From the NCBI RefSeq assembly GCF_964355755.1, contig NC_092673.1, positions 10,478,001 through 10,542,000 of the forward strand: a stretch of DNA of 64,000 bases. Direction: 5' to 3'. The translations under genes and the position numbers were made by a program. The notes under the pieces are model-generated. The model saw nothing but the letters and a program-made list of their open reading frames with translations, searched no databases and was not told the origin of the DNA. Below are positions 6,001 to 31,006 of this stretch, piece after piece (the first letter of the stretch is position 1; the number at the start of each line of letters is the position of its first letter). Source of the DNA: Antedon mediterranea (lineage: Eukaryota; Animalia; Echinodermata).

Positions 6001-9000
6001 CTCTCTCGCTGATCTATCTCTCTCTCGCTGATCTATCTCTCTCTCGCTGATCTATCTCTCTCTCGCTGATCTATCTCTCTCTCGCAGATCTATCACTCTC
6101 TCTCGCTGATCTATCTCTCTCTCTCGCTGATCTATCTCTCTCTCTCGCTGATCTATCTCTCTCTCGCTGATCTATCTCTCTCGCTGATCTATCTCTCTCT
6201 CGCTGATCTATCTCTCTCTCTCTCTCTCGCTGATCTATCTCTCTCTCGCTGATCTATCTCTCTCTCGCTGATCTATCTCTCTCTCTCGCTGATCTATATC
6301 TCTCTGGCTGATCTATCTCTCTCTCGCTGATCTTTCTCTCTCTCTGGCTGATCTATCTCTCTCTCGCTGATCTATCTCTCTCTCGCTGATCTATCTCTCT
6401 CTCTCTCGCTGATCTATCTCTCTCGCTGATCTATCTCTCTCTCGCTGATCTATCTCTCTCTCTCGCTGATCTATCTCTCTCTCGCTGATCTATCTCTCTC
6501 GCTGATCTATCTCTCTCTCTCGCTGATCTATCACTCTCTCTCGCTGATCTATCTCTCTCTCTCTCGCTGATCTATCTCTCTCTTTCGCTGATCTATCTCT
6601 CTCTCGCTGATCTATCTCTCTCGCTGATCTATCTCTCTCTCGCTGATCTATCTCTCTCTCTCTCTCGCTGATCTATCTCTCTCTCGCTGATCTATCTCTC
6701 TCTCGCTGATCTATCTCTCTCTCGCTGATCTGTCTCTCTCTCGCTGATCTATCTCTCTCTCGCTGATCTATCTCTCTCTCGCTGATCTATCTCTCTCTCG
6801 CTGATCTATCTCTCTCTCGCTTATCTATCTCTCTCTCGCTGATCTATCTCTCTCTCGCTGATCTACCTCTCTCTCGCTGATCTATCTCTCTTTCTCGCTA
6901 TTCTATCTCTCTCTCGCTGATATATCTCTCTCTCGCTGATCTAACTCTCTCGCTGATCTATCTCTCTCTCGCTGATCTATCTCTTTCTCGCTGATCTATC
7001 TCTCTCTCGCTGATCTATCACTCTCTCGCTGATCTATCTCTCTCTCGCTGATCTATCTCTCTCTAGCTGATCTATCTCTCTCTCGCTGATCTATCTCTCT
7101 CTCGCTGATCTATCACTCTCTCTCGCTGATCTATCTCTCTCTCTCTCGCTGATCTATCTCTCTCTCTCGCTGATCTATCTCTCTCTCGCTGATCTATCTC
7201 TCTCGCTGATCTATCTCTCTCTCGCTGATCTATCTCTCTCACTCTCCCGCTGATCTATCTCTCTCTCGCTGATCTATCCCTCTCTCGCAGATCCATCTCT
7301 CTCTCGCTGATCTATCTATCTCTCGCTGATCTATCTCCCTCGCTGTTCTATCTCTCTAGTTGATCTATCTCTCTCTCGCTGATCTATCTCTCTCTCGCTG
7401 ATCTATCTCTCTCTCTCTCGCTGATCTATCTCTCTCTCGCTGATCTATCTCTCTCTCTTGCTGATCTATCACTCTCTCTCGCTGATCTATCTCTCTCTCG
7501 CGCTGATCTATCTCTCTCTCTCTCGCTGATCTATCTCTATATCTCACTGATCTATCTCTCTCTCTCGCTGATCTATCTCTCTCTCCCGCTGATCTATCTC
7601 TAGCTCTCTGTCGCTGATCTTTCTCTAGCTCTCTCTCGCTGATCTATCTCTCTCTGTCGCTGATCTATCTCCCTCTGTCGCTGATCTATCTCTCTCTGTC
7701 GCTGATCTATCTCTCTTTGTCGCTGATCTATCTCTCTATCTCTCTCTCGCTGATCTATCTCTCTCGCTGATCTATCTTTCTCTCGCTGATCTATCTCTCT
7801 CTCGCTGATTTATCTCCCTCTGTCGCTGATCTATTTCTCTCTCGCTGATCTATCTCTCTCTCGCTGATCTATCTCTCTCGCTGATCTATCTCTCTCTCTC
7901 GCTGATCTATCCCATTCTCGCTGATCTAACTCTCTCGCTGATCTAACTCTCTCTCGCTGATCTATCTCTTTCTCGCTGATCTATCTCTCTCTCGCTGATC
8001 TATCTCTCTCTCGCTGATCTATCTCTCTCTCGCTGATCTATCTCTCTCTCGCTGATCTATCTCTCTCTCTCTCGCTGATCTATCACTCTCTCTCGCTGAT
8101 CTATCTCTCTCACTCGCTGATCTATCTCTCTCTCGCTGATCTATCTCTCTCGCTGATCTATCTCTCTCTCTCGCTGATCTATCTCTCTCTCTCTCTCGCT
8201 GATCTATCTCTCTCTCGCTGATCTATCTCTCTCTCGCTGATCTATCTCTCTCTCGCTGATCTATCTCTCTCTCGCTGATCTATCTCTCTCTCTCTCGCTG
8301 ATCTATCACTCTCTCTCTCGCTGATCTATCTCTCTCTCTCTCGCTGATCTATCTCTCTCTCTCGCTGATCTATCTCTCTCTCGCTGATCTATCTCTCTCG
8401 CTGATCTATCTCTCTCTCGCTGATCTATCTCTCTCTCTCTCGCTTATCTATCTCTCTCTCGCTGATCTATCTCTCTCTCGCTGATCTATCTCTCTCTCGC
8501 CGAACTGTCTCTCTCTCGCTGATCTATCTCTCTCTCGCTGATCTATCTCTCTCTCGCTGATCTATCTCTCTCTCGCTGATCTATCTCTGTCTCGCTTATC
8601 TATCTCTCTCTCGCTGATCTACCTCTCTCTCGCTGATCTATCTCTCTCTCGCTGATCTATCTCTCTCTCGCTGATATATCTCTCTCTCGCTGATCTAACT
8701 CTCTCGCTGATCTATCTCTCTCTCGCTGATCTATCTCTTTCTCGCTGATCTATCTCTCTCTCGCTGATCTATCTCTCTCTCGCTGATCTATCTCTCTCTC
8801 GCTGATCTATCTCTCTCTCGCTGATCTATCTCTCTCTCTCTCGCTGATCTATCACTCTCTCTCGCTGATCTATCTCTCTCTCTCTCGCTGATCTATCTCT
8901 CTCTCTCTCGCTGATCTATCTCTCTCTCGCTGATCTATCTCTCTCGCTGATCTATCTCTCTCTCTCGCTGATCTATCTCTCTCTCTCTCTCGCTGATCTA

Positions 9001-12000
9001 TCTCTCTCTCGCTGATCTATCTCTCTCTCGCTGATCTATCTCTCTCTCGCTGATATGTCTCTCTCTCGCTGATCTATCTCTCTCTCGCTGATCTAACTCT
9101 CCCCCGCTGATCTATCTCTCTCTCGCTAATCTATCTCTCTCTCTCGCTGATCTATCTCTCTCTCTCGCTGATCTATCTCTCTCGCTGATCTATCTCTCTC
9201 TCGCTGATCTATCTCTCTCTCGCTGATCTATCTCTCTCTCGCTGAATTATCTCTCTCTCGCTGATCTATCTCTTTCTCGCTGATCTCTCTCTCTCTCGCT
9301 GATCTATCTCTCTCTCGCTGATCTATCTCTCTCTTGCTGATCTATCTCTCTCTCGCTGATCTATCTCTCTCTCGCAGATCTATCACTCTCTCTCGCTGAT
9401 CTATCTCTCTCTCTCGCTGATCTATCTCTCTCTCTCGCTGATATATCTCTCTCTCGCTGATCTATCTCTCTCGCTGATCTATCTCTCTCTCGCTGATCTA
9501 TCTCTCTCTCTCTCTCTCTCGCTGATCTATCTCTCTCTCGCTGATCTATCTCTCTCTCGCTGATCTATCTCTCTCTCTCGCTGATCTATATCTCTCTGGC
9601 TGATCTATCTCTCTCTCGCTGATCTTTCTCTCTCTCTGGCTGATCTATCTCTCTCTCGCTGATCTATCTCTCTCGCTGATCTATCTCTCTCTCGCTGATC
9701 TATCTCTCTCTCTCGCTGATCTATCTCTCTCTCGCTGATCTATATTTCTCTCGCTGATCTATCTCTCTCTCACGCTGATCTATCTCTCTCTCGCTGATCT
9801 ATCTCTTTCTTGCAGATCCATCTCTCTCTCGCTGATCTATCTCTCTCTCGCTGATATATCTCCCTCGCTGTTCTATCTCTCTGTAGTTGATCTGTCTCTC
9901 TCTGGCTAATCTATCTCTCTCTCGCTGATCTATCTCTCTCTCTCTCGCTGATCTATCTCTCTCTCTCGCTGATCTATCTCTCTCTCGCTGATCTATCTCT
10001 CTCTCTCGCTGATCTATCTCTCTCGCTGATCTATCTCTCTCTCGCTGATCTATCTCTATCTCGCTGATCTATCTCTCTCTCGCTGATCTATCTCTCTCGC
10101 TGATCTATCTCTCTCTCTCGCTGATCTATCACTCTCTCTCGCTGATCTATCTCTCTCTCTCGCTGATCTATCTCTCTCTCTCGCTGATCTATCTCTCTCT
10201 CGCTGATCTATCTCTCTCGCTGATCTATCTCTCTCTCTCTCTCGCTGATCTATCTCTCTCTCGCTGATCTATCTCTCTCTCGCTGATCTATCTCTCTCTC
10301 GCTGATCTGTCTCTCTCTCGCTGATCTATCTCTCTCTCGCTGATCTATCTCTCTCTCGCTGATCTATCTCTCTCTCGCTGATCTATCTCTCTCTCGCTTA
10401 TCTATCTCTCTCTCGCTGATCTACCTCTCTCTCGCTGATCTATCTCTCTCTCTCACTATTCTATCTCTCTCTCGCTGATATATCTCTCTCTCGCTGATCT
10501 AACTCTCTCGCTGATCTATCTCTCTCTCGCTGATCTATCTCTTTCTCGCTGATCTATCTCTCTCTCGCTGATCTATCACTCTCTCGCTGATCTATCTCTC
10601 TCTCGCTGATCTATCTCTCTCTCTCTCGCTGATCTATCTCTCTCTCTCGCTGATCTATCTCTCTCTCGCTGATCTATCTCTCTCGCTGATCTATCTCTCT
10701 CTCGCTGATCTATCTCTCTCACTCTCGCGCTGATCTATCTCTCTCTCGCTGATCTATCCCTCTCTCGCAGATCCATCTCTCTCTCGCTGATCTATCTATC
10801 TCTCGCTGATCTATCTCCCTCGCTGTTCTATCTCTCTAGTTGATCTATCTCTCTCTCGCTGATCTATCTCTCTCTCGCTGATCTATCTCTCTCTCTCTCT
10901 CGCTGATCTATCTCTCTCTCGCTGATCTATCTCTCTCTCTTGCTGATCTATCACTCTCTCTCGCTGATCTATCTCTCTCTCGCGCTGATCTATCTCTCTC
11001 TCTCTCTCTCGCTGATCTATCTCTATATCTCACTGATCTATCTCTCTCTCTCGCTGATCTATCTCTCTCTCCCGCTGATCTATCTCTAGCTCTCTGTCGC
11101 TGATCTATCTCTAGCTCTCTCTCGCTGATCTATCTCTCTCTGTCGCTGATCTATCTCCCTCTGTCGCTGATCTATCTCTCTCTGTCGCTGATCTATCTCT
11201 CTCTGTCGCTGATCTATCTCTCTATCTCTCTCTTGCTGATCTATCTCTCTCGCTGATCTATCTCTCTCTCGCTGATCTATCTCTCTCTTGCTGATCTATC
11301 TCCCTCTGTCGCTGATCTATTTCTCTCTCGCTGATCTATCTCTCTCTCGCTGATCTATCTCTCTCGCTGATCTATCTCTCTCTCTCGCTGATCTATCTCA
11401 TTCTCGCTGATCTATCTCTCTCTCGCTGATCTATCTCTCACTCGCTGATCTATCTCTCTCTCGCTGATCTATCTCTCTCTCTCTCTCTCGCTGATCTCTC
11501 TCTCTCGCTGATCTATCTCTCTCTCGCTGATCTATCTCTCTCTCGCTGATCTATCTCTCTCTCGCTGATCTATCTCTCTCGCTGATCTATCTCTCTCTCG
11601 CTGATCTATCTCTCTCTCGCTGATCTATCTCTCTCTCGCTGATCTATCTCTCTCTCTCGCTGATCTATCACTCTCTCTCGCTGATCTATCTCTCTCTCTC
11701 TCGCTGATCTATCTCTCTCTCTCGCTGATCTATCTCTCTCTCGCTGATCTATCTCTCTCTCTCTCGCTTATCTATCTCTCTCTCGCTGATCTATCTCTCT
11801 CTCGCTGATCTATCTCTCTCTCGCCGAACTGTCTCTCTCTCGCTGATCTATCTCTCTCTCGCTGATCTATCTCTCTCTCGCTGATCTATCTCTCTCTCGC
11901 TGATCTTTCTCTCTCTCGCTTATCTATCTCTTTCTCTCGCTGATCTACCTCTCTCTCGCTGATCTATCTCTCTCTCGCTGATCTATCTCTCTCTCGCTGA

Positions 12001-15000
12001 TCTATCTCTCTCTCTCTCTCTCTCGCTGATCTATCAGAGAGAGATAGATCAGCGAGAGAGAAATAGATCAGCGACAGAGGGAGATAGATCGCTGATCTAT
12101 CTCTCTCTCGCTGATCTATCTCTCTCTCGCTGATCTATATCTCTCTCGCTGATCTATCTCTCTCTCGCTGATCTTTCTCTCTCTCTGGCTGATCTATCTT
12201 TCTCTCGCTGATCTATCTCTCTCGCTGATCTATCTCTCTCTCGCTTATCTATCTCTCTCTGTCACTGATCTATCTCTCTCTCGCTGATCTATCTTTCTCT
12301 CGCTGATCTATCTCTCTCTCTCTCGCGCGCTGATCTATCTCTCTCTCTCGCTGATCTATCTCTCTCTCGCAGATCCATCTCTCTCTCGCTGATCTATCTT
12401 TCTCTCGCTGATCTATCTCTCTCTCTCTCTCGCGCTGATCTATCTCTCTCTCGCTGATCTATCTCTCTCTCGCAGATCCATCTCTCTCTCGCTGATCTAT
12501 CTCTCTCTCGCTGATCTATCTCCCTCGCTGTTCTATCTCTCTCTAGTTGATCTATCTCTCTCTCGCTGATCTATCTCTCTCTCGCTGATCTATCTCTCTC
12601 TCTCTCGCGCTGATCTATCTCTCTCTCGCGCTGATCTATCTCTCTCTCGCTGATCTATCCCTCTCTCGCAGATCCATCTCTCTCTCGCTGATCTATCTAT
12701 CTCTCGCTGATCTATCTCCCTCGCTGTTCTATCTCTCTAGTTGATCTATCTCTCTCTCGCTGATCTATCTCTCTCTCGCTGATCTATCTCTCTCTCTCTC
12801 GCTGATCTATCTCTCTCTCGCTGATCTATCTCTCTCGCTGATTTATCTCTCTCTCGCTGATCTATCTCTCTCTCTCGCTGATCTATCTCTCTCTCGCTGA
12901 TCTATATTTCTCTCGCTGATCTATCTCTCTCTCTCGCGCTGATCTATCTCTCTCTCGCTGATCTATCTCTCTCTCGCAGATCCATCTCTCTCTCGCTGAT
13001 CTATCTCTCTCTCGCTGATCTATCTCCCTCGCTGTTCTGTCTCTCTCTAGTTGATCTATCTCTCTCTCGCTGATCTATCTCTCTCTCGCTGATCTATCTC
13101 TCTCTCTCTCGCTGATCTATCTCTCTCTCTCGCTGATCTATCTCTCTCTCTCGCTGATCTATCTCTCTCTCTCGCTGATCTATCTCTCTCGCTGATCTAT
13201 CTCTCTCTCGCTGATCTACCTCTCTCTCGCTGATCTATCTCTCTCTCTCGCTGATCTATCTCTCTCTCGCTGATATATCTCTCTCTCGCTGATCTAACTC
13301 TCTCGCTGATCTATCTCTCTCTCGCTGATCTATCTCTTTCTCGCTGATCTATCTCTCTCTCGCTGATCTATCACTCTCTCGCTGATCTATCCTATCTCTC
13401 TCTCGCTGATCTATATCTCTCTCGCTGATCTATCTCTCTCTCTCGCTGATCTTTCTCTCTCTCTGGCTGATCTATCTCTCTCTCTCGCTGATCTATCTCT
13501 CTCTCTCTCGCTGATCTATCTCTCTCTCTCGCTGATCTATCTCTCTCTCGCTGATCTATCTCTCTCGCTGATCTATCTCTCTCTCGCTGATCTATCTCTC
13601 TCTCTCTCTCTCGCTGATCTATCTCTCTCTTGCTGATCTATGTCTCTCTCTCGCTGATCTATCTCTCTCTCGCTGATCTATATCTCTCTCGCTGATCTAT
13701 CTCTCTCTCGCTGATCTATCTCTCTCTCTCGCTGATCTATCACTCTCTCTCGCTGATCTATCTCTCTCTCTCTCGCTGATCTATCTCTCTCTCTCTCGCT
13801 GATCTATCTCTCTCTCTCGCTGATCTATCTCTCTCGCTGATCTATCTCTCTCTCGCTGATCTATCGCTCTCTCTCGCTTATCTATCTCTCTCTCGCTGAT
13901 CTATCTCTCTCTCGCAGATCCATCTCTCTCTCGCTGATCTATCTCTCTCGCGCTGATCTATCTCTCTCTCGCTGATCTATCTCTCTCTCGCAGATCCATC
14001 TCTCTCTCGCTGATCTATCTCTCTCTCGCTGATCTATCTCCCTCGCTGTTCTATCTCTCTCTAGTTGATCTATCTCTCTCTCGCTGATCTATCTCTCTCT
14101 CGCTGATCTATCTCTCTCTCTCTCTCTCGCTGATCTTTCTCTCTCTCTGGCTGATCTATCTTTCTCTCGCTGATCTATCTCTCTCGCTGATCTATCTCTC
14201 TCTCGCTGATCTATCTCTCTCTCTCGCTGATCTATCTCTCTCTCGCTGATCTATCTCTCTCTCGCTGATCTATCTCTCTCTCTCGCTGATCTATCTCTCT
14301 CTCGCTGATCTATCTTTCTCTCGCTGATCTATCTCTCTCTCTCTCGCGCTGATCTATCTCTCTCTCTCGCTGATCTATCTCTCTCTCGCAGATCCATCTC
14401 TCTCTAGTTGATCTATCTCTCTCTCGCTGATCTCTCTCTCTCTCTCGCTGATCTATCTCTCTCTCTCTCGCTGATCTATCTCTCTCTCGCTGATCTATCT
14501 CTCTCTCTTGCTGATCTATCACTCTCTCTCGCTGATCTATCTCTCTCTCGCGCTGATCTATCTCTCTCTCTCGCTGATCTATCTCTATCTCTCATTGATC
14601 TATCTCTCTCTCTCGCTGATCTATCTCTCTCTCGCTGATCTATCTCTAGCTCTCTGTCGCTGATCTATCTCTAGCTCTCTCTCGCTGATCTATCTCTCTC
14701 TGTCGCTGATCTATCTCTCTCTGTCGCTGATCTATCTCTCTCTGTCGCAGATCTATCTCTCTCTGTCGCTGATCTATCTTCCTCTGTCGCTGATCTATCT
14801 CTCTCTGTCGCTGATCTATCTCTCTCTGTCGCTGATCTATCTCTCTATCTCTCTCTCGCTGATCTATCTCTCTCGCTGATCTATCTCTCTCTCGCTGATC
14901 TATCTCTCTCTCGCTGATCTATCTCCCTCTCGCTGATCTATTTCTCTCTCGCTGATCTATCTATCTCTCGCTGATCTATCTCTCTCTCTTGCTGATCTAT

Positions 15001-16043
15001 CACTCTCTCTCGCTGATCTATCTCTCTCTCGCGCTGATCTATCTCTCTCTCTCGCTGATCTATCTCTATCTCTCATTGATCTATCTCTCTCTCTCGCTGA
15101 TCTATCTCTATCTCGCTGATCTATCTCTAGCTCTCTGTCGCTGATCTATCTCTAGCTCTCTCTCGCTGATCTATCTCTCTCTGTCGCTGATCTATCTCTC
15201 TCTGTCGCTGATCTATCTCTCTCTGTCGCTGATCTATCTCTCTCTGTCGCTGATCTATCTTCCTCTGTCGCTGATCTATCTCTCTGTCGCTGATCTATCT
15301 CTCTATCTCTCTCTCGTGTGATCTATCTCTCTCGCTGATCTATCTCTCTATCGCTGATCTATCTCTCTCTCGCTGATCTATCTCCCTCTCGCTGATCTAT
15401 TTCTCTCTCGCTGTACTATCTCTCTCTCGCTGATCTATTCCTCTCGCTGATCTATCTCTCTCTCACTGATCTATCTCTCTCTCGCTGATCTATCTCTCTC
15501 TCGCTGATCTATCTCTCTCGCTGATCTATCTCTCACTCGCTGATCTATCTCTCTCTCGCTGATCTATCTCTCTCTCGCTGATCTATCTCTCTCTCGCTGA
15601 TCTATCTCTCTCTCGCTGATCTATCTCTCTCTGGCAGATCTATCTCTCTCTCGCTGATCTATCTCTCTCTCGCTGATCTATCTCTCTCTCTCTCGCTGAT
15701 TTATCTCTCTCTAGCTGATCTATCTCTCTCGCTGATCTATCTCTCTCTCTGATTTATCTCTCTCTCGCTTATCTATCTCTCTCTCGCTGATCTACCTCTC
15801 TCTCGCTGATCTATCTCTCTCTCTCGCTGATCTATCTCTCTCTCGCTGATCTATCTCTCTCTCGCTGATCTAACTCTCTCGCTGATCTATCTCTCTCACG
15901 CTGATCTATCTCTTTCTCGCTGATCTATCTCTCTCGCTGATCTATCTCTCTCTCGCTGATCTATCTCTCTCTCGCTGATCTATCTCTCACTCGCTGATCT
16001 ATCTCTCACTCTCTGATCTATCTCTATCTCGCTGATCTATCTC
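1..16043. repeat. 19-bp satellite array (CTCTCTCTCGCTGATCTAT)n with variable CT-tract length and higher-order repeats
   Basis: Continuous tandem monomers. Diagnostic variants recur in the same order, e.g. CTGATTTA near 229, 1583 and 2980, a period of about 1.35-1.4 kb. Confidence 0.98.
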
Positions 16044-16314
16044 CTAGTTCCTAGTTCTGGTGGTGGAACAAGTCTTCTCGGATAAGGACTATAAACCGTA
16101 GGTCCAGTGTACACAGTTATAACCTGTGTGTACTTTAAAGAACCCAGTTCATTATTCGAAAAATAGTAGGGGGTTACCCCGGTGAACTGGTTCACACAAT
16201 AGCCCCTGTATCAGGGGGATTACCACCTATCTGATAGGACAGTGATTAATTCACTGTTGGTAATCCTTGGCCACATTGCCTAAAGACATAAAATAAAATA
16301 AAATAAATAAATAA
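16044..16314 (+). mobile_element. 5'-truncated SINE (MetaSINE-like core) inserted in the satellite
   Basis: Core motifs GGATAAGGACTATAAACCGTAGGTCC and TTAAAGAACCC, an (AAAAT/AAAT)n tail, and ATCTATCTC on both sides (consistent with a TSD). A diverged copy lies at ~58813-58962. Confidence 0.7.
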
Positions 16315-16402
16315 ATCTATCTCTCTCGTTGATCTATCTCTCTCTCGCTGATCTATCTCTCTCTCGCTGATCTATCTCTCTCTCGCTGATCTATCTCACA
16401 CT
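16315..16402. repeat. Short satellite segment between two insertions
   Basis: Four to five monomers of the same 19-bp repeat. Confidence 0.95.
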
Positions 16403-18548
16403 CACGTCATATTGCGAATTTTGGACAAAAAGTGTTTTGAGAGCGCTTTTGATTTATATATTAGCGCGAGCCTATCTTTACCGCTGAGAATTGTATTGAG
16501 AAACCCGAAGACTTCACGCGAGCGAGACGAACTGACTAAGAACATTATTACTATAGATTTTCACTTCATACACGCTTATTATTGAACAATAGTTAGTATA
16601 AATAACTGCTAGTTAATTAGAGACATTCGATGTTACTAAGAATACTAAAGAAATTACCTATAATACAAATTTAAAAGATTTATAACGATTCTAGTTTAGG
16701 TAACATTCGCCCATTAACAATCAAAACAAACAAATCCTGCGTAGGAAATCGCGGATCTCTAAAAAGTTTGTTTTGATATCACGCTAAAATTGTTTCCGAA
16801 TTTTTAAATACATATTTGTAAATTTTATGTTAAATTTCAATATCTTTACTTTTAATCCTCAAAAAATCAAAATGTTAATATTTTTTAAAAGAATTTTATG
16901 ATCATTTGAAATCGGGTATATTTACTATCGATCGCGCTCCGCCGGTGCCCGAGTAGGTGTGTACGCGTCGCTTTTGCTGGCTCTATTCCCAGTAGCGAGT
17001 TTCGGTCGCGCTAACATAAGCAATGTTTTCTACATTTACATGCATTAGGGGTAAATTATGTTTAATTGTTTTTACCGCATACCAAAATTCCCAAATTTAT
17101 TTCTTTTCTTGCCTAACCGTTTCTGTCACCCTAAAATCAAATACTTTAACTGCATAATTTTAAGCGACAATAACATACAAATAGGCCTACTATAATTTGA
17201 TCACTTCTGCGCAATACTTTAAAGTTGTTGTATACAATTATTTTAAGAATATAAATAAAAACACACAGAAACTAATAAAATGGCAACTAATTGAAAAGTC
17301 AAACTCATTTATTTTATCAATTAAATATTTGAAAAAAATCAAATCAAGTAAGGTACTGCTGTGTAGGCCTTAAATATGATTACTGTATTTTTTAGTTTTA
17401 ATTTGTATAATGGCCTAGGCCTAATAATATAGTACTAACAACATGTTTATTTCTAAAGGCAAGAATAACAAACAGCTTTATTTATTTACCTTCAATATTA
17501 AATCTATGAGAAACCTCAATTATGAGAATCATTTAAATTTCTGTCACCGTACATTTCATTATAATGAAAACCTTTAATTTAAAAGACATTTAATTAATAA
17601 GAGCTGGTCAAATATTTTTGAATGTCAACATGCTGTCCATAAATAGCCGCTTTCAAGTGATGCAAATGTTTTCTGGAGTCAGATCCTATAAAAATATAGA
17701 AATATAAAAAGTATGTTAATTTAAATATGTATTTGAAAGATGGGCTAGAGGTATACTGCATGATAAATTAGGCTGAAAAACCTAGCATGTAGTCCTAGGA
17801 CTACTACAAGGCCTAGCTTAATGTTTTAAATCCCATAAAACGTTTGAATTTAATACAAGTACAAAATCTAATTTATATAGAGTTGTAAAGTGTGGTACAT
17901 TCAGTACATTAATTAAAATAAATGCGAATGGGGCCTAATATTAATAAATAAACATGTAAAAAAATTGGCCTAAACGACTACGTGTGTATCTTATACGCAT
18001 TGATTAACACGCAGTACGCGTTGGACCATCAAGGCTAGGCCCAGCTTCGCACAAACCACCGTTATACATGTGATTTGTTTACCTATTTCAATCGCCATTT
18101 AAAAAATACATGAAAATATCAACATGCCCATTTTTTGTCAAACGAATATTTACATTACATAGTAACTTTTTATTTAGTCACTCGTTTACTCAAAAATTGA
18201 GGAATTTTTTTATGGTCTCGTAAAAATGTACAATATTATTATTGATAAAAACCGTATAAAATCTAACAAAAAGAAGAGCAAATTCAATGATTACCTGACA
18301 CGATCATAACTGCTATCCTGTTCCAAAAACCGAGTAACATGCTTCTTCAACCCTTGCTTTAATTATTCTCATGAATTATTCATAAGGAACTATAATTTAA
18401 GGCTTTCAATTGGTTAAAAGAGTTTAACCCTATTAAAATTTTAAATTCACATCATTTCCGGGTGATGTTGTCGCGCTTGGATGAATCTCAGAAATCACAA
18501 ATGACCGCTAGAGGGCTCACTACTTTTTGTCTAGTCTAAATGAATGTG
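16403..18548. mobile_element. Non-coding 2.1-kb insertion with CAC...GTG ends (putative non-autonomous DNA transposon) in the CT tract of the satellite
   Basis: Starts CACGTCATATT; the reverse complement of its end is CACATTCATTT. The satellite variant order resumes across it. No ORF of 60 aa or more. Confidence 0.6.
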
Positions 18549-21500
18549 ATCTCTCTCTCTCGCTGATCTATCTCTCTCTCGCTGATCTATCTCTCTCTCG
18601 CTGATCTATCTCTCTCTCGCCGATCTATCTCTCTCTCGCTGATCTATCTCTCTCTCGCTGATCTATATCTCTCTCGCTGATCTATCTCTCTCTCGCTGAT
18701 CTTTCTCTCTCTCTGGCTGATCTATCTCTCTCTCTCGCTGATCTATCTCTCTCGCTGATCTATCTCTCTCTCGCTGATCTATCTCTCTCTCTCTCGCTGG
18801 TCTATCTCTCTCGCTGATCTATCTTTCTCTCGCTGATCTCTCTCTCTCTCTCTCTCGCGCTGATCTATCTCTCTCTCGCTGATCTATCTCTCTCTCGCAG
18901 ATCCATCTCTCTCTCGCTGATCTATCTCTCTCTCGCTAATCTATCTCCCTCGCTGTTCTATCTCTCTCTAGTTGATCTATCTCTTTCTCGCTGATCTATC
19001 TCTCTCTCGCTGATCTATCTCTCTCTCGCTGATCTATCTCTCTCTCTCGCTGATCTATCTCTCTCTCGCTGATCTATCTCTCTCTCTTGCTGATCTATCA
19101 CTCTCTCTCGCTGATCTATCTCTCTCGCGCTGATCTATCTCTCTCTCTCTCTCTCTCGCTGATCTATCTCTATCTCTCACTGATCTATCTCTCTCTCTCG
19201 CTGATCTATCTCTCTCTCTCGCTGATCTATCTCTAGCTCTCTGTCGCTGATCTATCTCTAGCTCTCTGTCGCTGATCTATCTCTAGCTCTCTCTCGCTGA
19301 TCTATCTCTCTCTGTCGCTGATCTATCTCTCTCTGTCGCTGATCTATCTCTCTCTGTCGCTGATCTATCTCTCTCTGTCGCTGATCTATCTCCCTCTGTC
19401 GCTGATCTATCTCTCTCTGTCGCTGATCTATCTCTCTCTGTCGCTGATCTATCTCTCTATCTCTCTCTCGCTGATCTATCTCTCTCGCTGATCTATCTCT
19501 CTCTCGCTGATCTATCTCTCTCTCGCTGATCTATCTCCCTCTCGCTGATCTTTTTCTCTCTCGCTGATCTATCTCTCTCTCGCTGATCTATCTCTCTCGC
19601 TGATCTATCTCTCTCTCTCGCTGATCTATCTCTCTCTCGCTGATCTATCTCTCTCTCGCTTATCTATCTCTCTCTCGCTGATCTATCTCTCACTCGCTGA
19701 TCTATCTCTCTCTCGCTGATCTATCTCTCTCTAGCTGATCTATCTCTCTCTCGCTGATCTATCTCTCTCTCGCTGATCTATCTCTCTCTCGCAGATATAT
19801 CTCTCTCTCGCTGATCTATCTCTCTCTCACTGATCTATCTCTCTCTCTCTCGCTGATTTATCGCTCTCTCGCTGATCTATCTCTCTCACTGATCTATCTC
19901 TCTCTCTCTGATTTATCTCTCTCGCTGATCAATCTCTCTCGCTGATCTAACTCTCTCGCTGATCTATCTCTCTCTCGCTGATCTATCTCTTTCTCGCTGA
20001 TCTATCTCTCTCTCGCTGATCTATCTCTCTCTCGCTGATCTATCTCTCTCTCGCTGATCTATCTCTCACTCGCTGATCTATCTCTCACTCGCTGATCTAT
20101 CTCTCTCTCGCTGATCTATCTCTCTCTCGCTGATCTATCTCTCTCGTTGATCTATCTCTCTCTCGCTGATCTATCTCTCTCTCGCTGATCTATCTCTCTC
20201 TCGCTGATCTATCTCTCTCTCGCAGATCTATCTCTCTCTCTCTGATCTATCTCTCTCTCTCAATGATTTATATCTCTCTCGCTGATCTATCTCTCTCGCT
20301 GATCTATCTCTCTCTCTGATTTATCTCTCTCTCGCTTATCTATCTCTCTCTCGCTGATCTACCTCTCTCTCGCTGATCTATCTCTCTCGCTGATCTATCT
20401 CTCTCTCGCTGATCTATCTCTCTCTCGCTGATCTAACTCTCTCGCTGATCTATCTCTCTCTCTCGCTGATCTATCTCTTTCTCGCTGATCTATCTCTCTC
20501 GCTGATCTATCTCTCTCTCTCTCGCTGATCTATCTCTCTCTCGCTGATCTATCTCTCACTCGCTGATCTATCTCTCACTCTCTGATCTATCTCTCTCTCG
20601 CTGATCTATCTCTCTCTCGCTGATCTATCTCTCTCGTTGATCTATATCTCTCTCGCTGATCTATCTCTCTCTCTCTTGCTGATCTATCTCTCTCGCTGAT
20701 CTATCTCTCTCTCGCTGATCTATCTCTCTCTCGCTTATCTATCTCTCTCTCTCGCTGATCTATCTCTCTCTCGCTGATCTATCTCTCTCTCTCGCTGATC
20801 TATCTCTCTCTCGCTGATCTATCTCTCTCTCGCCGATCTATCTCTCTCTCGCTGATCTATCTCTCTGTCGCTGATCTATATCTCTCTCGCTGATCTATCT
20901 CTCTTTCGCTGATCTTTCTCTCTCTCTGGCTGATCTATCTCTCTCTCTCGCTGATCTATCTCTCTCGCTGATCTATCTCTCTCTCGCTGATCTATCTCTC
21001 TCGCTGATCTATCTTTCTCTCGCTGATCTATCTCTCTCTCTCTCGCGCTGATCTATCTCTCTCTCGCTGATCTATCTCTCTCTCGCAGATCCATCTCTCT
21101 CTCGCTGATCTATCTCTCTCTCGCTGATCTATCTCCCTCGCTGTTCTATCTCTCTCTAGTTGATCTATCTCTCTCTCGCTGATCTATCTCTCTCTCGCTG
21201 ATCTATCTCTCTCTCGCTGATCTATCTCTCTCTCTCTCACTGATCTATCTCTCTCTCGCTGATCTATCTCTCTCTCTTGCTGATCTATCACTCTCTCTCG
21301 CTGATCTATCTCTCTCTCGCGCTGATCTATCTCTCTCTCTCTCGCTGATCTATCTCTCTCTCGCTGATCTATCTCTCTCTCGCTGATCTATCTCTCTCTC
21401 GCTGATCTATCTCTCACTCGCTTATCTATCTCTCTCTCGCTGATCTATCTCTCTCTAGCTGATCTATCTCTCTCTCGCTGATCTATCTCTCTCTCGCTGA

Positions 21501-22585
21501 TCTATCTCTCTCTCGCAGATATATCTCTCTCTCGCTGATCTATCTCTCTCTCGCTGATCTATCTCTCTCTCTCTCGCTAATTTATCGCTCTCTCGCTGAT
21601 CTATCTCTCTCACTGATCTATCTCTCTCTCTCTGATTTATCTCTCTCGCTGATCAATCTCTCTCGCTGATCTAACTCTCTCGCTGATCTATCTCTCTCTC
21701 TCTCTCGCTGATCTATCTCTTTCTCGCTGATCTATCTCTCTCTCGCTGATCTATCTCTCTCTCGCTGATCTATCTCTCTCTCGCTGATCTATCTCTCACT
21801 CGCTGATCTATCTCTCACTCGCTGATCTATCTCTCTCTCGCTGATCTATCTCTCTCTCGCTGATCTATCTCTCTCGTTGATCTATCTCTCTCTCTCGCTG
21901 ATCTATCTCTCTCTCGCTGATCTATCTCTCTCTTGCTGATCTATCTCTCTCTCGCAGATCTATCTCTCTCTCGCTGATCTATCTCTCTCTCGCTGATTTA
22001 TATCTCTCTCGCTGATCTATCTCTCTCGCTGATCTATCTCTCTCTCTGATTTATCTCTCTCTCGCTTATCTATCTCTCTCTCGCTTATCTACCTCTCTCT
22101 CGCTGATCTATCTCTCTCTCGCTGATCTATCTCTCTCTCGCTGATATATCTCTCTCTCGCTGATCTAACTCTCTCGCTGATCTATCTCTCTCTCTCGCTG
22201 ATCTATCTCTTTCTCGCTGATCTATCTCTCTCGCTGATCTATCTCTCTCTCTCGCTGATCTATCTCTCTCTAGCTGATCTATCTCTCACTCGCTGATCTA
22301 TCTCTCACTCTCTGATCTATCTCTCTCTCGCTGATCTATCTCTCTCTCGCTGATCTATCTCTCTCGTTGATCTATCTCTCTCTCGCTGATCTATCTCTCT
22401 CTCGCTGATCTATCTCTCTCGCTGATCTATCTCTCTCTCGCTGATCTATCTCTCTCTCGCGCTGATCTATCTCTCTCTCTCTCGCTGATCTATCTCTATC
22501 TCTCACTGATGTATCTCTCTCTCTCGCTGATCTATCTCTCTCTCTCGCTGATCTATCTCTAGCTCTCTGTCGCTGATCTATCTCT
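18549..22585. repeat. 19-bp satellite array (continued)
   Basis: Same monomer and higher-order variants. Confidence 0.98.
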
Positions 22586-23344
22586 CACGTTTTTTTTTCA
22601 GTACAAACATTATACGTCTGTGTAGATTCAATAAAATCGACCTTTACTTTAATTTTGGCCATTCATTGCTAAAATGTATACAAAATCATAAAATATGCAT
22701 ATTTTGATTTTTATCGATTTCAATATTATCAAAATACTACAATTTAGCGATAACAAACATTTCCTCTTATAATTATTTTTATTTACATAAACTTGCCGTA
22801 TAATTTGTTTTGTTTTATATTTTGATTTTAGTAACGCTGAGAAATTAATAAACAAAACCTTGTTTTATATAAATGTATACATCGACATTAACTAGTTTAA
22901 TATAATGTATAATGAAACATAAATATATCAACTTACTTTGCCGATAAACTATAATATTGATTGAATAATTGTTTTTTTTTCTGTTTTATTAGTTTGGATG
23001 ATATGTTTTTATTTGTAGTTGAAAAAGGCAATTCTTTTTTGTTTTCATTTATGATAATGAGATAAAAGCTAGCTGAGTTTTAAAAACTATTTTTATAAAT
23101 GAATGTATTAATCCATGCATTTGTTGGCAGAGCTAGCTGCACTTCGATTATCATACACAAAACACTTTGGTGTAATTACCAGTAGTAGCGGCCCATGTCC
23201 ACTCAGCTCTAAAGCTTAGTATTAATAGCTCCTAACCACCTTATACTCGGTAATAATATATTAGATTCAACAAAGAAGTTATAAAGTGATGGGCTATATA
23301 CAGCAGATAACAGCGTGTATTATTCGAGCGACATGGTAGCTGCC

Positions 23345-23728
23345 TATTGACTATTTTCACATAAGTCATAATATTTATGACATTAATTTAGCAGTCATTA
23401 GGTCATAACATTTATGACAATTTAAAGGTACATGTTAAGTCTCGGAATACGCTAGTCATAGTGTATAGTACAGGAAGCACTAATTTCGGGGCTTCCTGGT
23501 ACAGTATTGACTATTTTCACATAAGTCATAATATTTATGACATTAATTTAGCAGTCATTAGGTCATAAAATTTATGACAATTTAAAACTACATGTTATGT
23601 CTCGGAATACGCTGGTTATAGTACATGAGGCTGTGATTTCCGGGCTTCAAGGTATTGATTATTTTCACATAAGTCATAATATTTATGACATGATTGTGAA
23701 GCTGCCATTAGGTCATAAAATTTATGAC
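23345..23728. repeat. Left subterminal tandem repeat: 3 units of ~150-160 bp, each with 2 GTCATAAnnnTTATGAC palindromes
   Basis: Palindromes start at 23365, 23402, 23525, 23562, 23673 and 23712. Confidence 0.93.
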
Positions 23729-26700
23729 TTCAGAAATACAAGAATTTCTCTGTAAAAATAATTAGTAGACAAAGTTTTAGTGTGCTATACAAGCTTTTTA
23801 TTAATGACAAAACATGAACACACTCAAGGTGTTTTTTCTCAGCCGTACATCAAAGAATTAAAGAACTGATAAATTTTAACTATTTATTCACTAACACTGG
23901 TTATTAATTTATGAATTAAACTCGGCTTCTAGTAAAATAAGTATTGTATGCATTACTAACTATTTATACGTGATTGTAGTAGAAAATATTTAAAAGATAT
24001 ATACATTTCACAGGCACAGAATAATTCGAAAGCGCCCAGTGAAATTTAATTATTTAATTTTAAACGATAAAGATGAGGAAATCAGTGAGAATGCCCAATC
24101 CAAGATCCGAACCCGGAACATTCTGCTTGATATGCAGATGACCATTAGACCACTGTTGTAGTACGGCGGAACAGTACTAGTCTCTCAATTGTATATACAG
24201 TATATATATAAACATCACAAGGCACAAATAAAATTTTATAAATTAATTTGAAAAGTTATATAAAATGTGATTGCAAGGCATGTGTCCAGTATCATGAATG
24301 CTATTTTCACCCCGGAAATGTGTAGTCGTCCTCCTCATTTGCCATCTCCGCATTATCTTCAACCTCCTCATCTGTACTGTCGTCCTCATCTGAAATGATG
24401 AATAAACCAAGGCCCTATTATTTAATAGACCTCTAAATAGTTGTATCATTTTTTTAGAAGCTCTGTGTAAACAAAATTTTAAAATAGAGCATCTTGTTTT
24501 TTCTTTTTAATTTGCATTACTATATGTTTCAAATTGGGTCAGAAATTGATTATGGGTATTTTGAATTTTTATTAAAAATTAAATGCATGGGCTGTGTTTA
24601 TACAAGTTTACAATACAGATAGCATAGTATGCCGTCCAAGTTATGAGAATACAGCTTAATATGCCGTTTTAAAATTCCTGAACAAAAAGTAGCAGTATAT
24701 TGCTCTACAAACATCAAATTATCAGCATTGCGACTTGAATGTATACAATATCGCTTGTATATTGTTCTTCGTATTAGCATCCATGACAATAGATAAACAA
24801 TAAAGTTAATTTAACTTAAACTTACCATCCGATTGGGCTCCATTTTCAAGCTGAATGCTGTTTTCAATTTCTTCTTTGAAACGAACTAATCTGGATCTTA
24901 ATTCAGATTTCCCATCATTCTCGAGCAAGGTTATACAATTGCGCCGTTGCAAAATTATTTCCTTGAACACTGTAATTATAATAACAATAAAATAGATTTC
25001 AATTGAATATTAAATTATTTTGTTAGTTCATTAATGTCGTTTGTACAAACGACAATAGTAATGACTCAAAGAACAAGAATTTTTCCCATTTGATTGCGCG
25101 ACATGCCCAATTGTCACGCAGTATGTTTTTGGTTAACATCAATTAATGATTATTATGAGTTATGGTATAAATGTATTATTTACCATTCCATCCTAGGCAA
25201 TTTACAACTAAGTGACCTTCTCTGCTATGCCTTGTCACTAGTTGCTTAATTAGCAGTTCTAGTGACTTAGCCTTAATGACGCCACCAATTCCATTCATCA
25301 TGCGTTCGTGTTGAGGGCTTACTAATAACGTGCGAATGGTGTCTAAAAAAATAGGAATCATCATTAAACTGTAGGCCTACATACTTACATTAACTTTCCT
25401 GTATATTTGAATATAATAATAATAATATCAATGGTACATTTCTTTTTTTTCTTTTATTAGACACAAGAAGAAATAACCCCATTACCCCACCATCCACCTC
25501 ATACCAAAAAGCAGTTAGTATTGCAAATTTGTGAACATTTTTTAGTAGACTGCCAATCAATGATTGGCCTATATTTATAATTGAATAAAAACGACTGAAC
25601 TATATTTGTAAATACAATAACAAACTGGGTATACCTTGTTCTTCGCAGTACCAATACTGTACTTGCATGACTCTATCGTTGTCTTTTAAAATAGTCATAT
25701 TGTATAGCAGGTCCTCGTCATTGCAAACAACTACGATGACATCAGAAATCAGCATTTCTTTTTCACATTTCTAAAAAAAAAAGGATAGAAAAAATAATAT
25801 AATAAGAAGAACAACAATAACAAAACCAGTAACAAAACCAGTGCAGTCTCAATGTTACTGTGTTATGCGAAAATTGCATGTGCCAGGCTTCGGGGGGTCA
25901 GTTAGAATGGGTAGAATTTTTGAATATTGTTCGGCTGTATAATCTCTAAAAATAGTTTGAATAATTGTTCTGTTGTTTATATAAATCTATTAAAATCTTT
26001 CTTAGTAAAGCCACATTGATAGGCCGTAAAAAACAATTTAGTTTCAAATTTGAAAAAACCTCACTATAGAATGAATTACAAATATACAAAACAATATAAA
26101 ATATTTAAAATATATCAAACCTCTGTCAGTACGAGCAGGCCACGATGTAACCCCATATTACTGGAATTGGCAATATCTGTCAATTTTCTGCCAATAAACG
26201 GCCCAGACATAACTTGACACTTTGATCTTGTTCCATCTTCTGTTAAAATATCAACTGTTGACGCTTGAGGGTGACTTTGCTTTTGTTCCTCCCAAAACAG
26301 AGCATCTTGACAATGCATGAATAAACCTGGTGGAATTTCGCTTTTAGATAACTTCCCTTTCAAAAGAAATGTATTAAAATGTTTTTATTATTATTTATTC
26401 AATATTTTAATTTCTATAAGGGATAGTAGTTTTGTGCGAATAAAGTACCTTTGCATCGAACTGCATAATATTAAATTGTTTCAATTTTGTACGAATTTTT
26501 AAAATCTGACAGAGTGGGACTTGGTTTTAGAAATATAGCACAAATACAGCTACTGAATTCTATTAGTAACATAGTAACCTTACTTGTTGTTAAAAAAGGC
26601 CGAAGAGCAGAATCGGTCGTGTGCTCCGGAAATCTGTCGGTCGCTTCCTTCCATGTCAGTACTTTAATAGTTGTCAAAAATTTTCCTCTGGTCACCTTTA

Positions 26701-29699
26701 TCTGCTTGATCGACCGTGCTTTATTTTCAACCTCTTTAATGGACATTGTTCCGTCTGTTACAGATGACAGCATATTAAACTTGTCTTCTTCCGACAGGCC
26801 TTGTAGTGTCATGAAGAACTATAGAATTGTAAAAAAAATGTTTAGTCACAATACTGATAACAAATAATAAAGCGTTCCAATAGGGGTTCAAGAGGTTCAG
26901 TATACACATTTCTCTCGTGTGGATAACAATTGAAAAAAACAAAACAATTGTTAATGCACGTCATATCATTTTTGAATAGGCCATTTTTTAGTTTTAACAA
27001 AGTTATTCACACCCCCCCCCCCCCCTTTAGAAAAAACAGGCCTATTTTAAAATGTTTAAATAACTTAGGCCTAATTTGAATACATTTTTATAGTTTGTTA
27101 TGTTTAGATTTAACCTGTTAGTGGCAGTTTCATAGCTGTTGGTTGACAACTGTATAAAATAAATAAATCAATAAATAATAGATTGTTTTTTACAAAGTTA
27201 TTAGGCCTAACCCTTTGAATTAAGACGCGTTGTTTCTACCGCAAGTGACTGAGACTAATAATTAACTGATTGTGTTTCTTGCTTGTTTGTTTTTGCCAAA
27301 AAAAAAGCATACACCAGTAATTGCTATCTATTGAGAGAATAAATGTGACAGAAAATAAAGGTAAGAAACCTACCGACTGCTTCAATTGCTTTCCGGGTTT
27401 GGAATCCTTTACCGTTCCTGCATTATACTGGGCAAACAGCTTGGTAACCTTTGTGTAGCATCGGTCCGTATACAATGATACTTGGAACATCGGTTCCATG
27501 GACGATATTATCTGCAATACAAAGTTATTATTTATTATTACTATCCTTATTTATTATTATCGTTATTAGCCTTTTATTATTGTTAATATCCTTATTATTA
27601 TTATTATTAATTACAACATTATTATTAATTATATCACCATTACATTAATAATTACAACTTTATATATTAGAGTCCTAAATAACTTGTTTAAATAATATTA
27701 ATAATACCTTTTTTTCGAACGATTGTTTGCCAATTGCCTCTGTACACTTTCTCCTCCATGTCGAAGTAGTTTTTGCATCTTTGTCATTGTAATCTTGCAA
27801 AATGTTGCGGCATACTGCAACGTTGTCTTCAAAAGTTGCTTGGTGAGTATTACCTGTGACGAAATTATGTCGAGATGCCACACGTAGTGATTCAGTTTTT
27901 GTTAGATCAAAATAGACTGCCACTTCTAATTGTTTAAATATATTCTCACTCATTGTTGATAGTGCTGTTCTTAAATGATTTCCGCCAAGTGAATAAAAAA
28001 TACACTTCTCGTATTCTTGTTTGTTAAAGAAATCGTTATGTTCTTTATTAAGCAATACAGGTAGTACCGTGTTCACCAGACCGTCCTTTGTAAGCGTTTC
28101 TTGAATTTTTTAAACAAAATCTTGGTCGATCTTGCGAAGTAGTAAGTCCGATGGCGGCGCTACTATCGAACTTCTTGGCACAGCAACTAGACCTAGAAAC
28201 GTAAAATGACAGTTTGTTAAATATTACATCTTATGATTATACAATAAGGAAGTATTCTCCCCAGGATTTAGATCAAGCATCGTAGTAATCTTATGTCCTG
28301 GCTAATCTGGGTGTCGGTGACTAATAATGTCAGCCTACTACTACAATTTAGTGAAATCATTTACCTGTATTTCACAATTCTAATATGAAACAACTTAATA
28401 TAAATATGTCATTGTATTATTATTATGATAGGATTTTCATATTTAATAAACCCATTTTATTTTTTACTCTCTAAAATGGGGAATTCCACAGTAATTGCAA
28501 GTTGCGACATCAGTAAAAACATTTTTAAAAATTGTTTTACATACAAAGTTGGACATTTTCAGAAAAAGGATACATTATTGAATTATATGAATTACAAAAA
28601 ATGATTGACGTTATATTTTAATATTAGTTTTATTTTTTAAATAACAATAAATATCCTAAAAATGTAACGTTGCCATACAGTATAGGCCGTTTAGTCTAGG
28701 CCTAGGTCAGGACATCAACACCCCCTGTCTGCTTGAGTGCATGGAGATCACCCTGCACATGTTATTTTTTATATTTTAGTTAATTTTGAATTTATATAGT
28801 TATTTTGCACAATATCTAGGAGGTTAGGTCTAGTGTATGTTAGCATCCGGGCTAGGTCTGGGTTTGCAAGGCTAGTAGTAGTCATGTGAAAGACAATTAA
28901 TTGTCCAATCGAATGACCGGAATCTATTTATGCGTTTTATAATAACTGTTTGAAACTTAAATAACAATAAAACAAATAGAAAATAGAGTAACTATAAGAA
29001 GTTAAAACCTGTGTTAAAAATATCTTTAGTTCGTTCATCTTCGAAAAATGTGTTCATCCGCTTTATATTTTAATAGGCCTAGTACGTATAATTACTTATC
29101 TAGCCAGATTATACTAATTTAACGTAACGAATTGTAGATACATTAAATCTAATCATGGTTAGGCCTATAGTTATTGTGAGTTATGTTTAAAATTACAGTT
29201 TTTGTTATCCAAGATCAAAGTGAATAACTATTATGTGACATATTCAACAAAACATTTGAAAAATATAAAACAGTAACGTTTGTTTAATTGTAAACTACAG
29301 TAAGACAAAAGCAGATAATATGCTTGTCTATGGGGCATGGTACAGTATGTAACTTCAATAACAAATGTTTCATATACTAACCAATGATCTTTTCTTTGAT
29401 TGTTTCGCCGATTGTCTTTATGTTAATTCTTGTTCTCTTTGTAGTTACGTTTTCAGCATCTTGAGCTTTTCGCTTTCGTAATGTTTGCAATGTTTTGGTA
29501 AGGTCGTCAATTGTCTTGCATTTGCAAAATGGGCAATTTTCGTCCGGTTTGAATTTGCTCCACAATACTTTGGTTGCAGCAAGCGTACTACTACAGTCGC
29601 TTTCTTCTGTAACAATCTATAGTATTGCAAATTTGTTTTTGATTAAATAAATAACTAAACATAGAAATTTATATTTATATAGTTGTTAAGTGTACACAC

Positions 29700-30528
29700 G
29701 GGATATGACCGGTTGGGCCGCCGACAAGTTGAGCCGCCGGTGATTTCTATGACACGCCCAGTGCATGCGTCTTTTACGACATTTCGCGTAGTGATTAGGA
29801 TGGTGTCCTAGTAGCCTACACAAGTTCATGGTCTTGGTTTATTGGTCATGAAAATAAATAACATATAATTATATATTACAATTAACAACACAGCAAAAGA
29901 AAGTAGTAATATTTAATAATTTAATTGTTTTAATCTTTCGAGGAAAAAATTCAATGCACTCATAATTTTTCTCGCGTGTAGGCCTATTACCACGTAAAGC
30001 TTTACGTGGTAGTAGGCCTACACGCGAGAAAAATTAAGTCACGTTGTCTCTCAGGACTAATTAATAGAGTTTTAATATTCTTCGAATGAGGTTAAATAAA
30101 TATTATTTTTTATTTACTAATCTTTTAATATAATATTTTATTGAATTTTACAATGTTAATACACAAAATATTTTACTAAAAAACGTGATTTTATGTAATT
30201 GTTTTACCGAAAAATGGAGTAGGCCTAGCCTAGTTCATACAACTGCCGACTGAGGGGCAACATGTTTACGTCATTTTTGGCTAAAAACGATCACTTTCGG
30301 TGATGTTTTATATTTTGGAATCTACAAGCAAGATTTCCATAATTATTTAAATATAATATTTAATAATATACATACTAAAAACCATGATATATAAACTTTT
30401 GAATGTACATCGTTATCCCTAATATAAATAGAACGAGCACCGGCGAAAGTTAGCATTTGGCGTTCCATAGAAAATAACGTTTTTCTGGCGGTGGCTCAAC
30501 TTGTCGGCGGCTCAACTAGGCCTAATCC
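29700..30528. mobile_element. Non-autonomous TIR element (GG termini, 8-bp TSD; MULE- or Merlin-type)
   Basis: TSD GTACACAC at 29692-29699 and 30529-30536. The TIRs contain the inverted motif GCCGCCGACAAGTTGAGCC. Confidence 0.8.
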
Positions 30529-31006
30529 GTACACACTACACCCTATTATTCAGGGTTTACAGCCGAAACGGCCGCCAACTGAAACGGCCGCCAATTGAAA
30601 CGCAATTAAATGTATGAAACGCCGCGTGTGCCGTTTGTCATACAAAACGACGTGTGGTTTAATACAATTGTTTTACTTTTTTTTCAGATTGAAATGACTT
30701 TAGACGTATGTGACTTAATAAATATTAAACAGATAGATGTTTTTTAATTATTTATGTATTATTATGTTTATCGTATAATAATGAATGTTGTGTAAACATA
30801 GTTGGGTTTTTTATATATTTTTTAAATGTAGGCCTATACAGTAAAAGTGTAAGGAAAAGAATTGGAATTTGACAAAATAAATGATAAATAATTACTATTA
30901 TTATATTAAAATCTAAATTCTTCCTAGTACTAGTTAGATAATTTAATATTTATTGACGATTAAATCGAATTTATGATTTTCCCCGAATAGAGGTGGTTTT
31001 CACAAA

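Follow-up and report, generated by a model that had tools for sequence, protein, structure and literature searches.

Does a DNA transposon that lies in a satellite choose that satellite, or does it lie in DNA that accepts insertions of many kinds? This question is raised by a 64,000-nucleotide stretch of the Antedon mediterranea genome (assembly GCF_964355755.1, contig NC_092673.1, positions 10,478,001 to 10,542,000 of the forward strand; hereafter the window, whose own coordinates are used throughout), in which two elements, here called E1 and E2, interrupt the CT run of one satellite. An earlier account drawn from the letters alone (the sequence-only reading) had described both as beginning with CACGT directly after CT, and had proposed two independent families with a common target preference. 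We conclude, with a probability of roughly 0.6, that E1 and E2 are two independent transposons that made 4-bp target-site duplications (TSDs) in an insertion-tolerant array, without strict targeting.

The satellite is a 19-bp repeat, CGCTGATCTAT(CT)n, with higher-order variant blocks. It fills the left part of the window (1..22585, forward strand), where it is broken by a piece resembling a short interspersed nuclear element (SINE) and by E1, and it resumes in unchanged orientation to the right of E2 (61785..64000). Parsing both arrays yielded 1124 monomers, 612 of them canonical, with (CT)4 as the most frequent run and with variant blocks that recur. Three non-satellite inserts break the array, namely the 271-bp SINE-like piece, the 2.1-kb E1 and the 39-kb E2, and we confirmed that both E1 and E2 interrupt the CT run. 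A 53-base stretch at 12036-12088 lies in inverse orientation within the forward array.

The order of the higher-order blocks carries on past both elements, from CGTT to CGCC across E1 and from CTAGCT to CTGTCG across E2, as the sequence-only reading had noted. The continuity is loose. Over E1, CGTT leads to CGCC in 7 monomers, compared with 9, 11, 10 and 10 in the intact counterparts (four of eight intact CGTT monomers; the other four have no CGCC within 11 monomers), and over E2 the CTAGCT monomer leads to the CTGTCG block in 7 monomers, compared with 2-3 in seven intact cases. In a marker-order score, the true right flanks were equalled by 106 of 1050 array start points for E1 and by 99 of 1050 for E2, placing both in about the top 10%. 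Rough continuity of this kind gives moderate support to the view that E1 and E2 entered an array that was already present and that afterwards underwent local turnover.

The position of both elements at a CT run is likely ordinary, with no sign of strict targeting. ATCT or CTCT on the left together with CT on the right was found at 3178 of the 22294 inter-base positions in the array (14%), and CT on the left at 30%. Because 14-30% of array sites look like the junctions, two insertions in CT runs need no explanation. An unrelated third insert lies in the same CT tract, 80 bp away: a retroposon (16044..16314, + strand) with an (AAAT)n tail and the 9-base repeat ATCTATCTC on each side, which we class as SINE-like from the look of its sequence. 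An Rfam scan of 16000-18600 gave no match. Invasion of satellite arrays by unrelated transposons, including elements with terminal inverted repeats (TIRs), has been described as widespread (bioRxiv 10.64898/2026.09.17.752431).

Relatives of the two elements were also seen in other surroundings. Among the 1,305,337 contigs of run X9, the right end of E2 had one match, a 2336-base contig that aligns over 35 bases with 2 mismatches and then continues into unique AT-rich DNA, not satellite. E2's own right end was not among the X9 contigs matched; a filter drops records, so its absence proves nothing. Two relatives of the E1 left end (90-95% identical) are joined to 32 and 29 flank letters that do not fit the satellite. 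For E1, 24 X9 records were listed, with satellite contigs crowding in, and the flanks of the main E1 family, whose depth is 420-494, were not among them. The tally is therefore one of one copies in satellite for each of E1 and E2, and three of three elsewhere for related ends with visible flanks.

We next consider the boundaries. E1 is a 2152-bp non-coding DNA transposon (16397..18548, no strand assigned) with ends CACACTCA and TGAATGTG, flanked on the forward strand by the target duplication ATCT (left copy 16393..16396, right copy 18549..18552). The sequence-only reading had placed its start at 16403. The six bases before that point, CACACT (16397-16402), are not satellite: CACAC has 0 occurrences in the arrays scanned. 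A depth-494 contig of run X9 starts at 16397 and carries CACACT without any difference; its start could stem from a variant 30 bases further in, so this contig shows family membership of CACACT only. The edge is given by two diverged X9 contigs whose alignment ends at exactly 16397. With this start the inverted match of the two ends is 4/4 and 7/8, compared with 3/4 and 4/8 for a start at 16403, and the empty site reconstructed by removing one ATCT is a monomer present 91 times, compared with 0 times for the join that keeps both copies. E1 therefore starts at 16397, with CACGT lying 6 bases inside. It follows that the beginning CACGT after CT holds for E2 (22586) and not for E1, whose boundary had been misplaced by 6 bases, CACACT belonging to the element. 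Likewise, the letters YGTG, one base and (TC)n do stand at both right ends as reported, but the 'extra base' of E1 is the first base of its ATCT duplication. A 5-bp, Transib-like duplication was ruled out for E1 (TATCT versus ATCTC). X9 joints linking 16391-16402 to 18547-18558, candidate E1 empty sites, proved to be satellite-only contigs and were not counted. An exact scan of prokaryote genomes with the E1 end gave 0 matches.

E2 is a 39,199-bp DUF7869/Sola1-like DNA transposon (22586..61784, + strand) with ends CACGTTTT and AAAATCGTG, whose terminal inverted match is 4/4, 7/8, 9/11 and 13/20. Its right end, 61784, lies beyond the range of the earlier observation (16403..22590). A window-wide scan found 12 identical, perfect GTCATAA-N3-TTATGAC palindromes, compared with 0.01 expected, all in the ends of E2 and none in E1. 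Near the left end a 160-bp tandem array (23365..23728) holds six of them, and near the right end a 56-bp tandem array (60847..61200) holds the other six, neither array being assigned a strand. This 6+6 split between the ends indicates that both ends belong to one element. An exact scan of viral contigs with the E2 end gave 0 matches. On the forward strand, the left flank of E2 is CTCT (22582..22585), a candidate target duplication, and the right flank is TTCT (61785..61788), with one mismatch to CTCT.

The mismatch bears on a different end chemistry, in which GTG would be followed by 1-2 bases, the duplication would be TCT (3 bp) or CT/CTCT, and E2 would end in CGTGTT between exact copies of CTCT. 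The flanks of E2 do read exactly CTCT on both sides when TT is counted to the element, and the related end of the 2336-base X9 contig matches E2 through that TT (61786), although a two-base extension would be expected by chance at about 0.1 in AT-rich DNA. The sequence TTCTCTCTCTCTCGCT was found at the E2 right junction only. Adopting this chemistry would break the symmetric CAC...GTG ends of both elements, and E1 is accounted for by symmetric ends flanked by an exact 4-bp duplication. We consider it unlikely, while holding it to be the strongest of the alternatives.

E1 and E2 have no inner sequence in common, as the sequence-only reading had seen: the best blastn match has E 0.071 (a 21-bp AT-rich match) and tblastx returned nothing, supporting two independent families. 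Their ends agree in 5, 6, 8 and 6 of the first 11 bases in the four end pairs, the common part being just CAC...GTG. The pair thus fails the Repbase rule for one superfamily, which asks for equal TSD length and at most one mismatch in terminal positions 1-11 (PMC4455052). E1 as a deletion derivative of E2 was ruled out, since neither sequence nor palindromes are shared. Judged by these comparisons, E1 cannot be assigned to the family of E2. Ends of the form 5'-CAC / GTG-3' with a 3-4-bp TSD are the hallmark of Chapaev (CMC) elements (PMC4079192), and such ends are present in E1 (CACA..TGTG with ATCT/ATCT) and in E2 (CACG..CGTG), so that the enzyme of E1 may be of a quite different kind.

E1 has no stop-free frame longer than 62 codons. 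Its depth in X9 is 383-494, with single variant contigs at 6.5-11.3; contig depth is not copy number, and the high depth suggests, roughly, that E1 is multicopy, likely in tens of copies. The copy in the window differs from the dominant X9 sequence by 17 listed letter differences and one indel. A spliced, polyadenylated RNA of ~0.42 kb maps within E1 (17292..18319, - strand; GT-AG intron 17686-18294), on the evidence of two runs (X2 and X4) of one study, filed as 'DNA?'. X2 gives the joint 17684-18294 (CT..AC), X4 gives poly-T before 17292, and an adapter-like loose end lies behind 18319. We take this 5' loose end to resemble a template-switch adapter, which would place the start of the RNA at 18319. 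Its longest ATG frame has 34 codons.

E2 carries a DUF7869 transposase gene (56496..60651, + strand) in which seven exons and six GT-AG introns were mapped, giving 689 stop-free codons across the mapped exons. The gene is unbroken in this copy of E2. The product is identical at 573 of 574 residues to an Antedon mediterranea protein, and the database copy matches Pfam DUF7869 with E 1e-71; the transposase cluster comprises 9 sequences on at least 7 contigs. Three acidic exon-like units, partly duplicated, lie upstream of the mapped exons (48115-48220, 54530-54860 and 55308-55429). A nested long terminal repeat (LTR) element interrupts the first of them, which leaves the 5' end of the gene provisional. 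A piece 72% identical to the SINE-like insert lies in an intron of the gene (58823-58944).

Across the aligned transposases listed, three Asp residues are conserved, D216, D294 and D337 (P0020 numbering), at spacings of 78 and 43 residues. The core of the structural model (mean predicted local distance difference test, pLDDT, 79.6) matches mariner/integrase catalytic domains with Z 7.0-7.5 (at Z 7.5, root-mean-square deviation, rmsd, 3.4 over 159 aligned residues). The RNase H core of Sola1 enzymes is reportedly compact and carries three conserved Asp (DDD), and the E2 transposase agrees with this, having three conserved Asp in an integrase-like predicted fold. TIRs, another Sola1 feature, are likewise present in E2. 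By contrast, in CMC enzymes the motifs C(2)C, LH and H(4)H sit in an insertion between the second Asp and the Glu, whereas in E2 just 43 residues separate D294 from D337, and the CxxC, at 156-159, precedes the first Asp. We take DUF7869 to be equivalent to Sola1; given that this link is our assumption and that the AWWT target hallmark of Sola1 is absent, we describe E2 as Sola1-like and not as a member.

A second, multi-exon gene lies on the opposite strand (24310..29616, - strand; nine stretches), with a putative N-terminal ParB/sulfiredoxin-like part and a putative C-terminal, degenerate N6/N4-methylase-like part. Its cluster comprises 9 sequences, and its proteins are found on 5 of the 7 transposase contigs, twice with accession numbers adjoining that of the transposase. 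With accessory and transposase proteins on the same contigs, the two genes probably move as a pair. A profile of 24 accessory relatives matched sulfiredoxin (ParB/Srx fold) with E 0.021 and the methylase M.RsrI with E 0.0065, and Pfam N6_N4_Mtase was matched by 4 of the 21 relatives scanned, 3 of them above the cut-off; the Antedon accessory proteins alone gave no Pfam match. The gene models P0039 and P0044 open with 43 residues antisense to a transposase exon (58502-58630, - strand), which probably reflects wrong joining when a shorter copy was modelled.

The nearest known design is Sola1-1_Ec32 of Ectocarpus, which like E2 exceeds 20 kb, contains nested inserts and has a transposase; its opposite-strand gene with ParB-like and N6/N4-methylase-like domains (PMC12477816) has a candidate counterpart in the accessory gene of E2. 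Its TSD is 4-bp and biased to end in A (PMC12477816); the candidate CTCT/TTCT of E2 is also 4-bp, but the junction 4-mers of E2 end in T. Sola1-1_Ec32 has ends AACCG...CGGTT with a 282-bp TIR (PMC12477816), whereas E2 has CACG...CGTG with an imperfect TIR of ~11 bp. E2 further differs in its subterminal palindrome arrays and in its degenerate methylase part without a Pfam match of its own. The accessible text on Sola1-1_Ec32 does not report a satellite preference (PMC12477816). Insect Sola1 elements have a 4-bp duplication, as likely here, and a transposase of similar size (630 amino acids), but are small and intronless, with an AWWT/AWDT target and GGACC ends in place of the ATCT and CTCT/TTCT duplications and CAC ends seen here (PMC3845634). 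Sola cores are described as lacking a Pfam family in 2017 (PMC5751038). We found no paper on Pfam DUF7869, and no report of Sola elements targeting satellites or microsatellites, in the literature searched, which left out subscription journals and Repbase Reports.

We also surveyed 80 metagenome loci with transposase relatives (24-58% identical over the best segment), which yielded no usable ends. A (CT/AG)n run was found at a contig end in 0 of the 80 and inside the contig in 1. Inverted ends were looked for in 33 of the 80 loci, and the ones with long TIRs (L005, L020 and L049) are cut at or near contig ends. These aquatic-metagenome DUF7869 relatives are distant and intronless, with long TIRs unlike the short ones of E2 (L049, 14-9786; L005, 150-5586; L020, 525-4440).

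The last exon of the E2 transposase gene (60322..60648, + strand) encodes a predicted SH3-like barrel plus helix at the C-terminus, with chromo-barrel and PWWP domains as its nearest folds. The model of this domain (residues 545-631; pLDDT 73.5) matched the MRG15 chromo domain with Z 7.3 (rmsd 4.0, 75 aligned), MRG701 with Z 7.3 (rmsd 2.7, 66 aligned) and PWWP with Z 6.9, with KOW, Tudor and ribosomal barrels trailing at Z 5.3-6.3. Domain residues Y28, W32, P33 and G36 are conserved in at least 9 of 10 aligned rows, four of which are Antedon copies, and the Y...WP..G motif was found in sea urchin, oyster, ribbon worm and clam relatives. A sequence search with the last domain returned neither short relatives nor a chain in the PDB. 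The tail might, to judge from its modelled fold, be a candidate chromatin reader, and we regard it as a lead rather than a finding.

This lead gives rise to the possibility of regional targeting, in which the C-terminal domain of E2 would recognise a protein or a histone mark found in satellite heterochromatin and so direct insertion to it, the cutting step itself having no more than a weak 4-bp preference. The barrel is nearest to MRG15, MRG701 and PWWP folds and its four residues are conserved, but matches below Z 8 may reflect a common arrangement only, given the Z 5.3-6.3 reached by KOW, Tudor and ribosomal barrels, and integrases likewise end in SH3-like DNA-binding barrels. Integrase C-termini that steer retroelements to centromeres have been reported (bioRxiv 10.64898/2026.09.17.752431); a centromeric or heterochromatic nature of the satellite here is a supposition, and the domain is absent or replaced in Branchiostoma relatives. 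Regional targeting would also leave E1 unexplained unless the same enzyme moves E1. We regard it as improbable, slightly more so than the alternative end chemistry. Somewhat more doubtful still is the fuller version, in which an active 39-kb, intron-rich, Sola-like DDD transposon would home to the satellite through its chromo-barrel/PWWP-like domain and move, or share its niche with, a non-coding CAC...GTG partner. A weaker regional preference for such repeat regions may exist, and the tail of the transposase might provide it.

Strict targeting of sequence, with both families recognising the CT run or the satellite monomer and inserting mostly there, fares worse, and we consider it quite unlikely. 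The junction pairs of E1 and E2 do share one monomer and lie at the start of its CT run, their phases differing by 2 bases and their places in the array by 4 kb, and no large cluster of loose ends was seen at the E1 termini among the 14 of 41 loose ends that were listed. The proposed common target preference was nevertheless not borne out: the shared CACGT arose from a boundary error and is not common to the two ends, a CT-run site is met by chance at 14-30% of positions, the unrelated SINE-like insert occupies the same tract, three related ends lie outside the satellite, and transposase genes are annotated on at least 7 large contigs. A fixed orientation cannot be defined for families that share just symmetric CAC...GTG ends. 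Target-specific DNA transposons are described as rare, the examples being Dada, Pokey and CryptonV, the last specific to microsatellites (cited in PMC8869645). These have different enzymes, and their specificity was seen over many copies (PMC8869645), whereas E1 and E2 are known here from one copy each. Least probable, by a little, is that the two E2 junctions stem from separate insertions, brought together by unequal exchange among copies of E2 or by a join made in assembly. The mismatched duplication and the five extra monomers right of E2 might suggest this, but the order of the blocks is still kept across E2 (with 99 of 1050 start points scoring equally well), and one substitution with local array turnover suffices.

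Independent insertion without strict targeting thus remains our preferred explanation, and several observations weigh against it. The E2 duplication has one mismatch (CTCT/TTCT) and lies inside a CT run, and the last bases of E2 are uncertain, with the related end in the X9 contig likewise running on with TT. Two CAC...GTG elements 4 kb apart, both at a CT-run start, would be equally expected from targeting, and the three non-satellite ends belong to diverged relatives (90-95% over 35-60 bases), not to the main families. With regard to the enzyme, Foldseek with the whole transposase retrieved Tn7 TnsB, IS21 IstA and foamy-virus integrase at E 0.007-0.02 only, and with neither the whole transposase nor the last domain did it retrieve anything at E<=0.001; every fold match of the transposase is below Z 8. 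None of the junction 4-mers (CTCT, TTCT and ATCT) fits the Sola1 hallmark AWWT (PMC3845634), from which Sola1-1_Ec32 also departs (PMC12477816).

From the boundaries, flanks, gene structure, palindromes and multicopy genes observed, we infer an enzyme class, a stagger length for E2, a role for the palindromes and a reason for the location. E1 and E2 would be cut-and-paste DNA transposons that likely inserted separately into an existing CT-rich satellite, each insertion likely making a 4-bp target duplication. The E2 enzyme would recognise the short CACG ends, excise the element and reinsert it through a staggered cut of 4 nt, likely assisted by the 6+6 subterminal palindromes, which the transposase or the ParB-like protein might bind. 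E1 would depend on an enzyme acting in trans from elsewhere, of Chapaev/CMC type or of Sola type. The two elements likely owe their location to the way in which large repeat arrays attract or tolerate many kinds of insertion, more than to a reading of the CT run by both, and later unequal exchange in the array would likely account for the altered monomer counts and for the one mismatch in the E2 duplication.

Of the 39.2 kb of E2, about 11.8 kb belong to four obvious nested inserts, leaving ~27 kb without them. One is an LTR element (48247..53888, + strand) with 298-bp LTRs that are identical at 296 of 298 positions, TG...CA termini and GTAG on both sides. This young element has no reverse transcriptase or integrase matches, and its open reading frames are weakly DUF1759-like, a PHD finger and a 571-codon frame with a TatD-like domain; its own LTRs and GTAG duplication rule out these frames as cargo of E2. 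It holds a 265-bp inverted duplication (99% identical, 50725-51323). The other three are foldback elements (31038-33312, 33362-34891 and 45478-47811), the first with 806-bp arms that are 98% complementary. Broken reverse-transcriptase fragments of a long interspersed nuclear element lie at 42766-43374 (- strand), and a unit of ~0.5 kb occurs in two direct copies and one inverted copy (38064-38595, 39761-40331 and 43685-43960).

In the literature searched, a giant Sola1-like element carrying a ParB/methylase-like passenger is described for Ectocarpus only. Under the explanation that we prefer, the value of the locus is modest: it provides an intact animal example whose ends are mapped and bear palindrome arrays, and whose transposase has a tail that is a candidate chromatin reader. 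If targeting were true, a DDD transposase would be added to the very few DNA transposons with target specificity, and its tail would be a protein domain on which one could test how satellite chromatin is found by a cut-and-paste enzyme. If the chromatin-guided version were true, E2 would be a cut-and-paste counterpart of chromoviruses and centromere-seeking retroelements.

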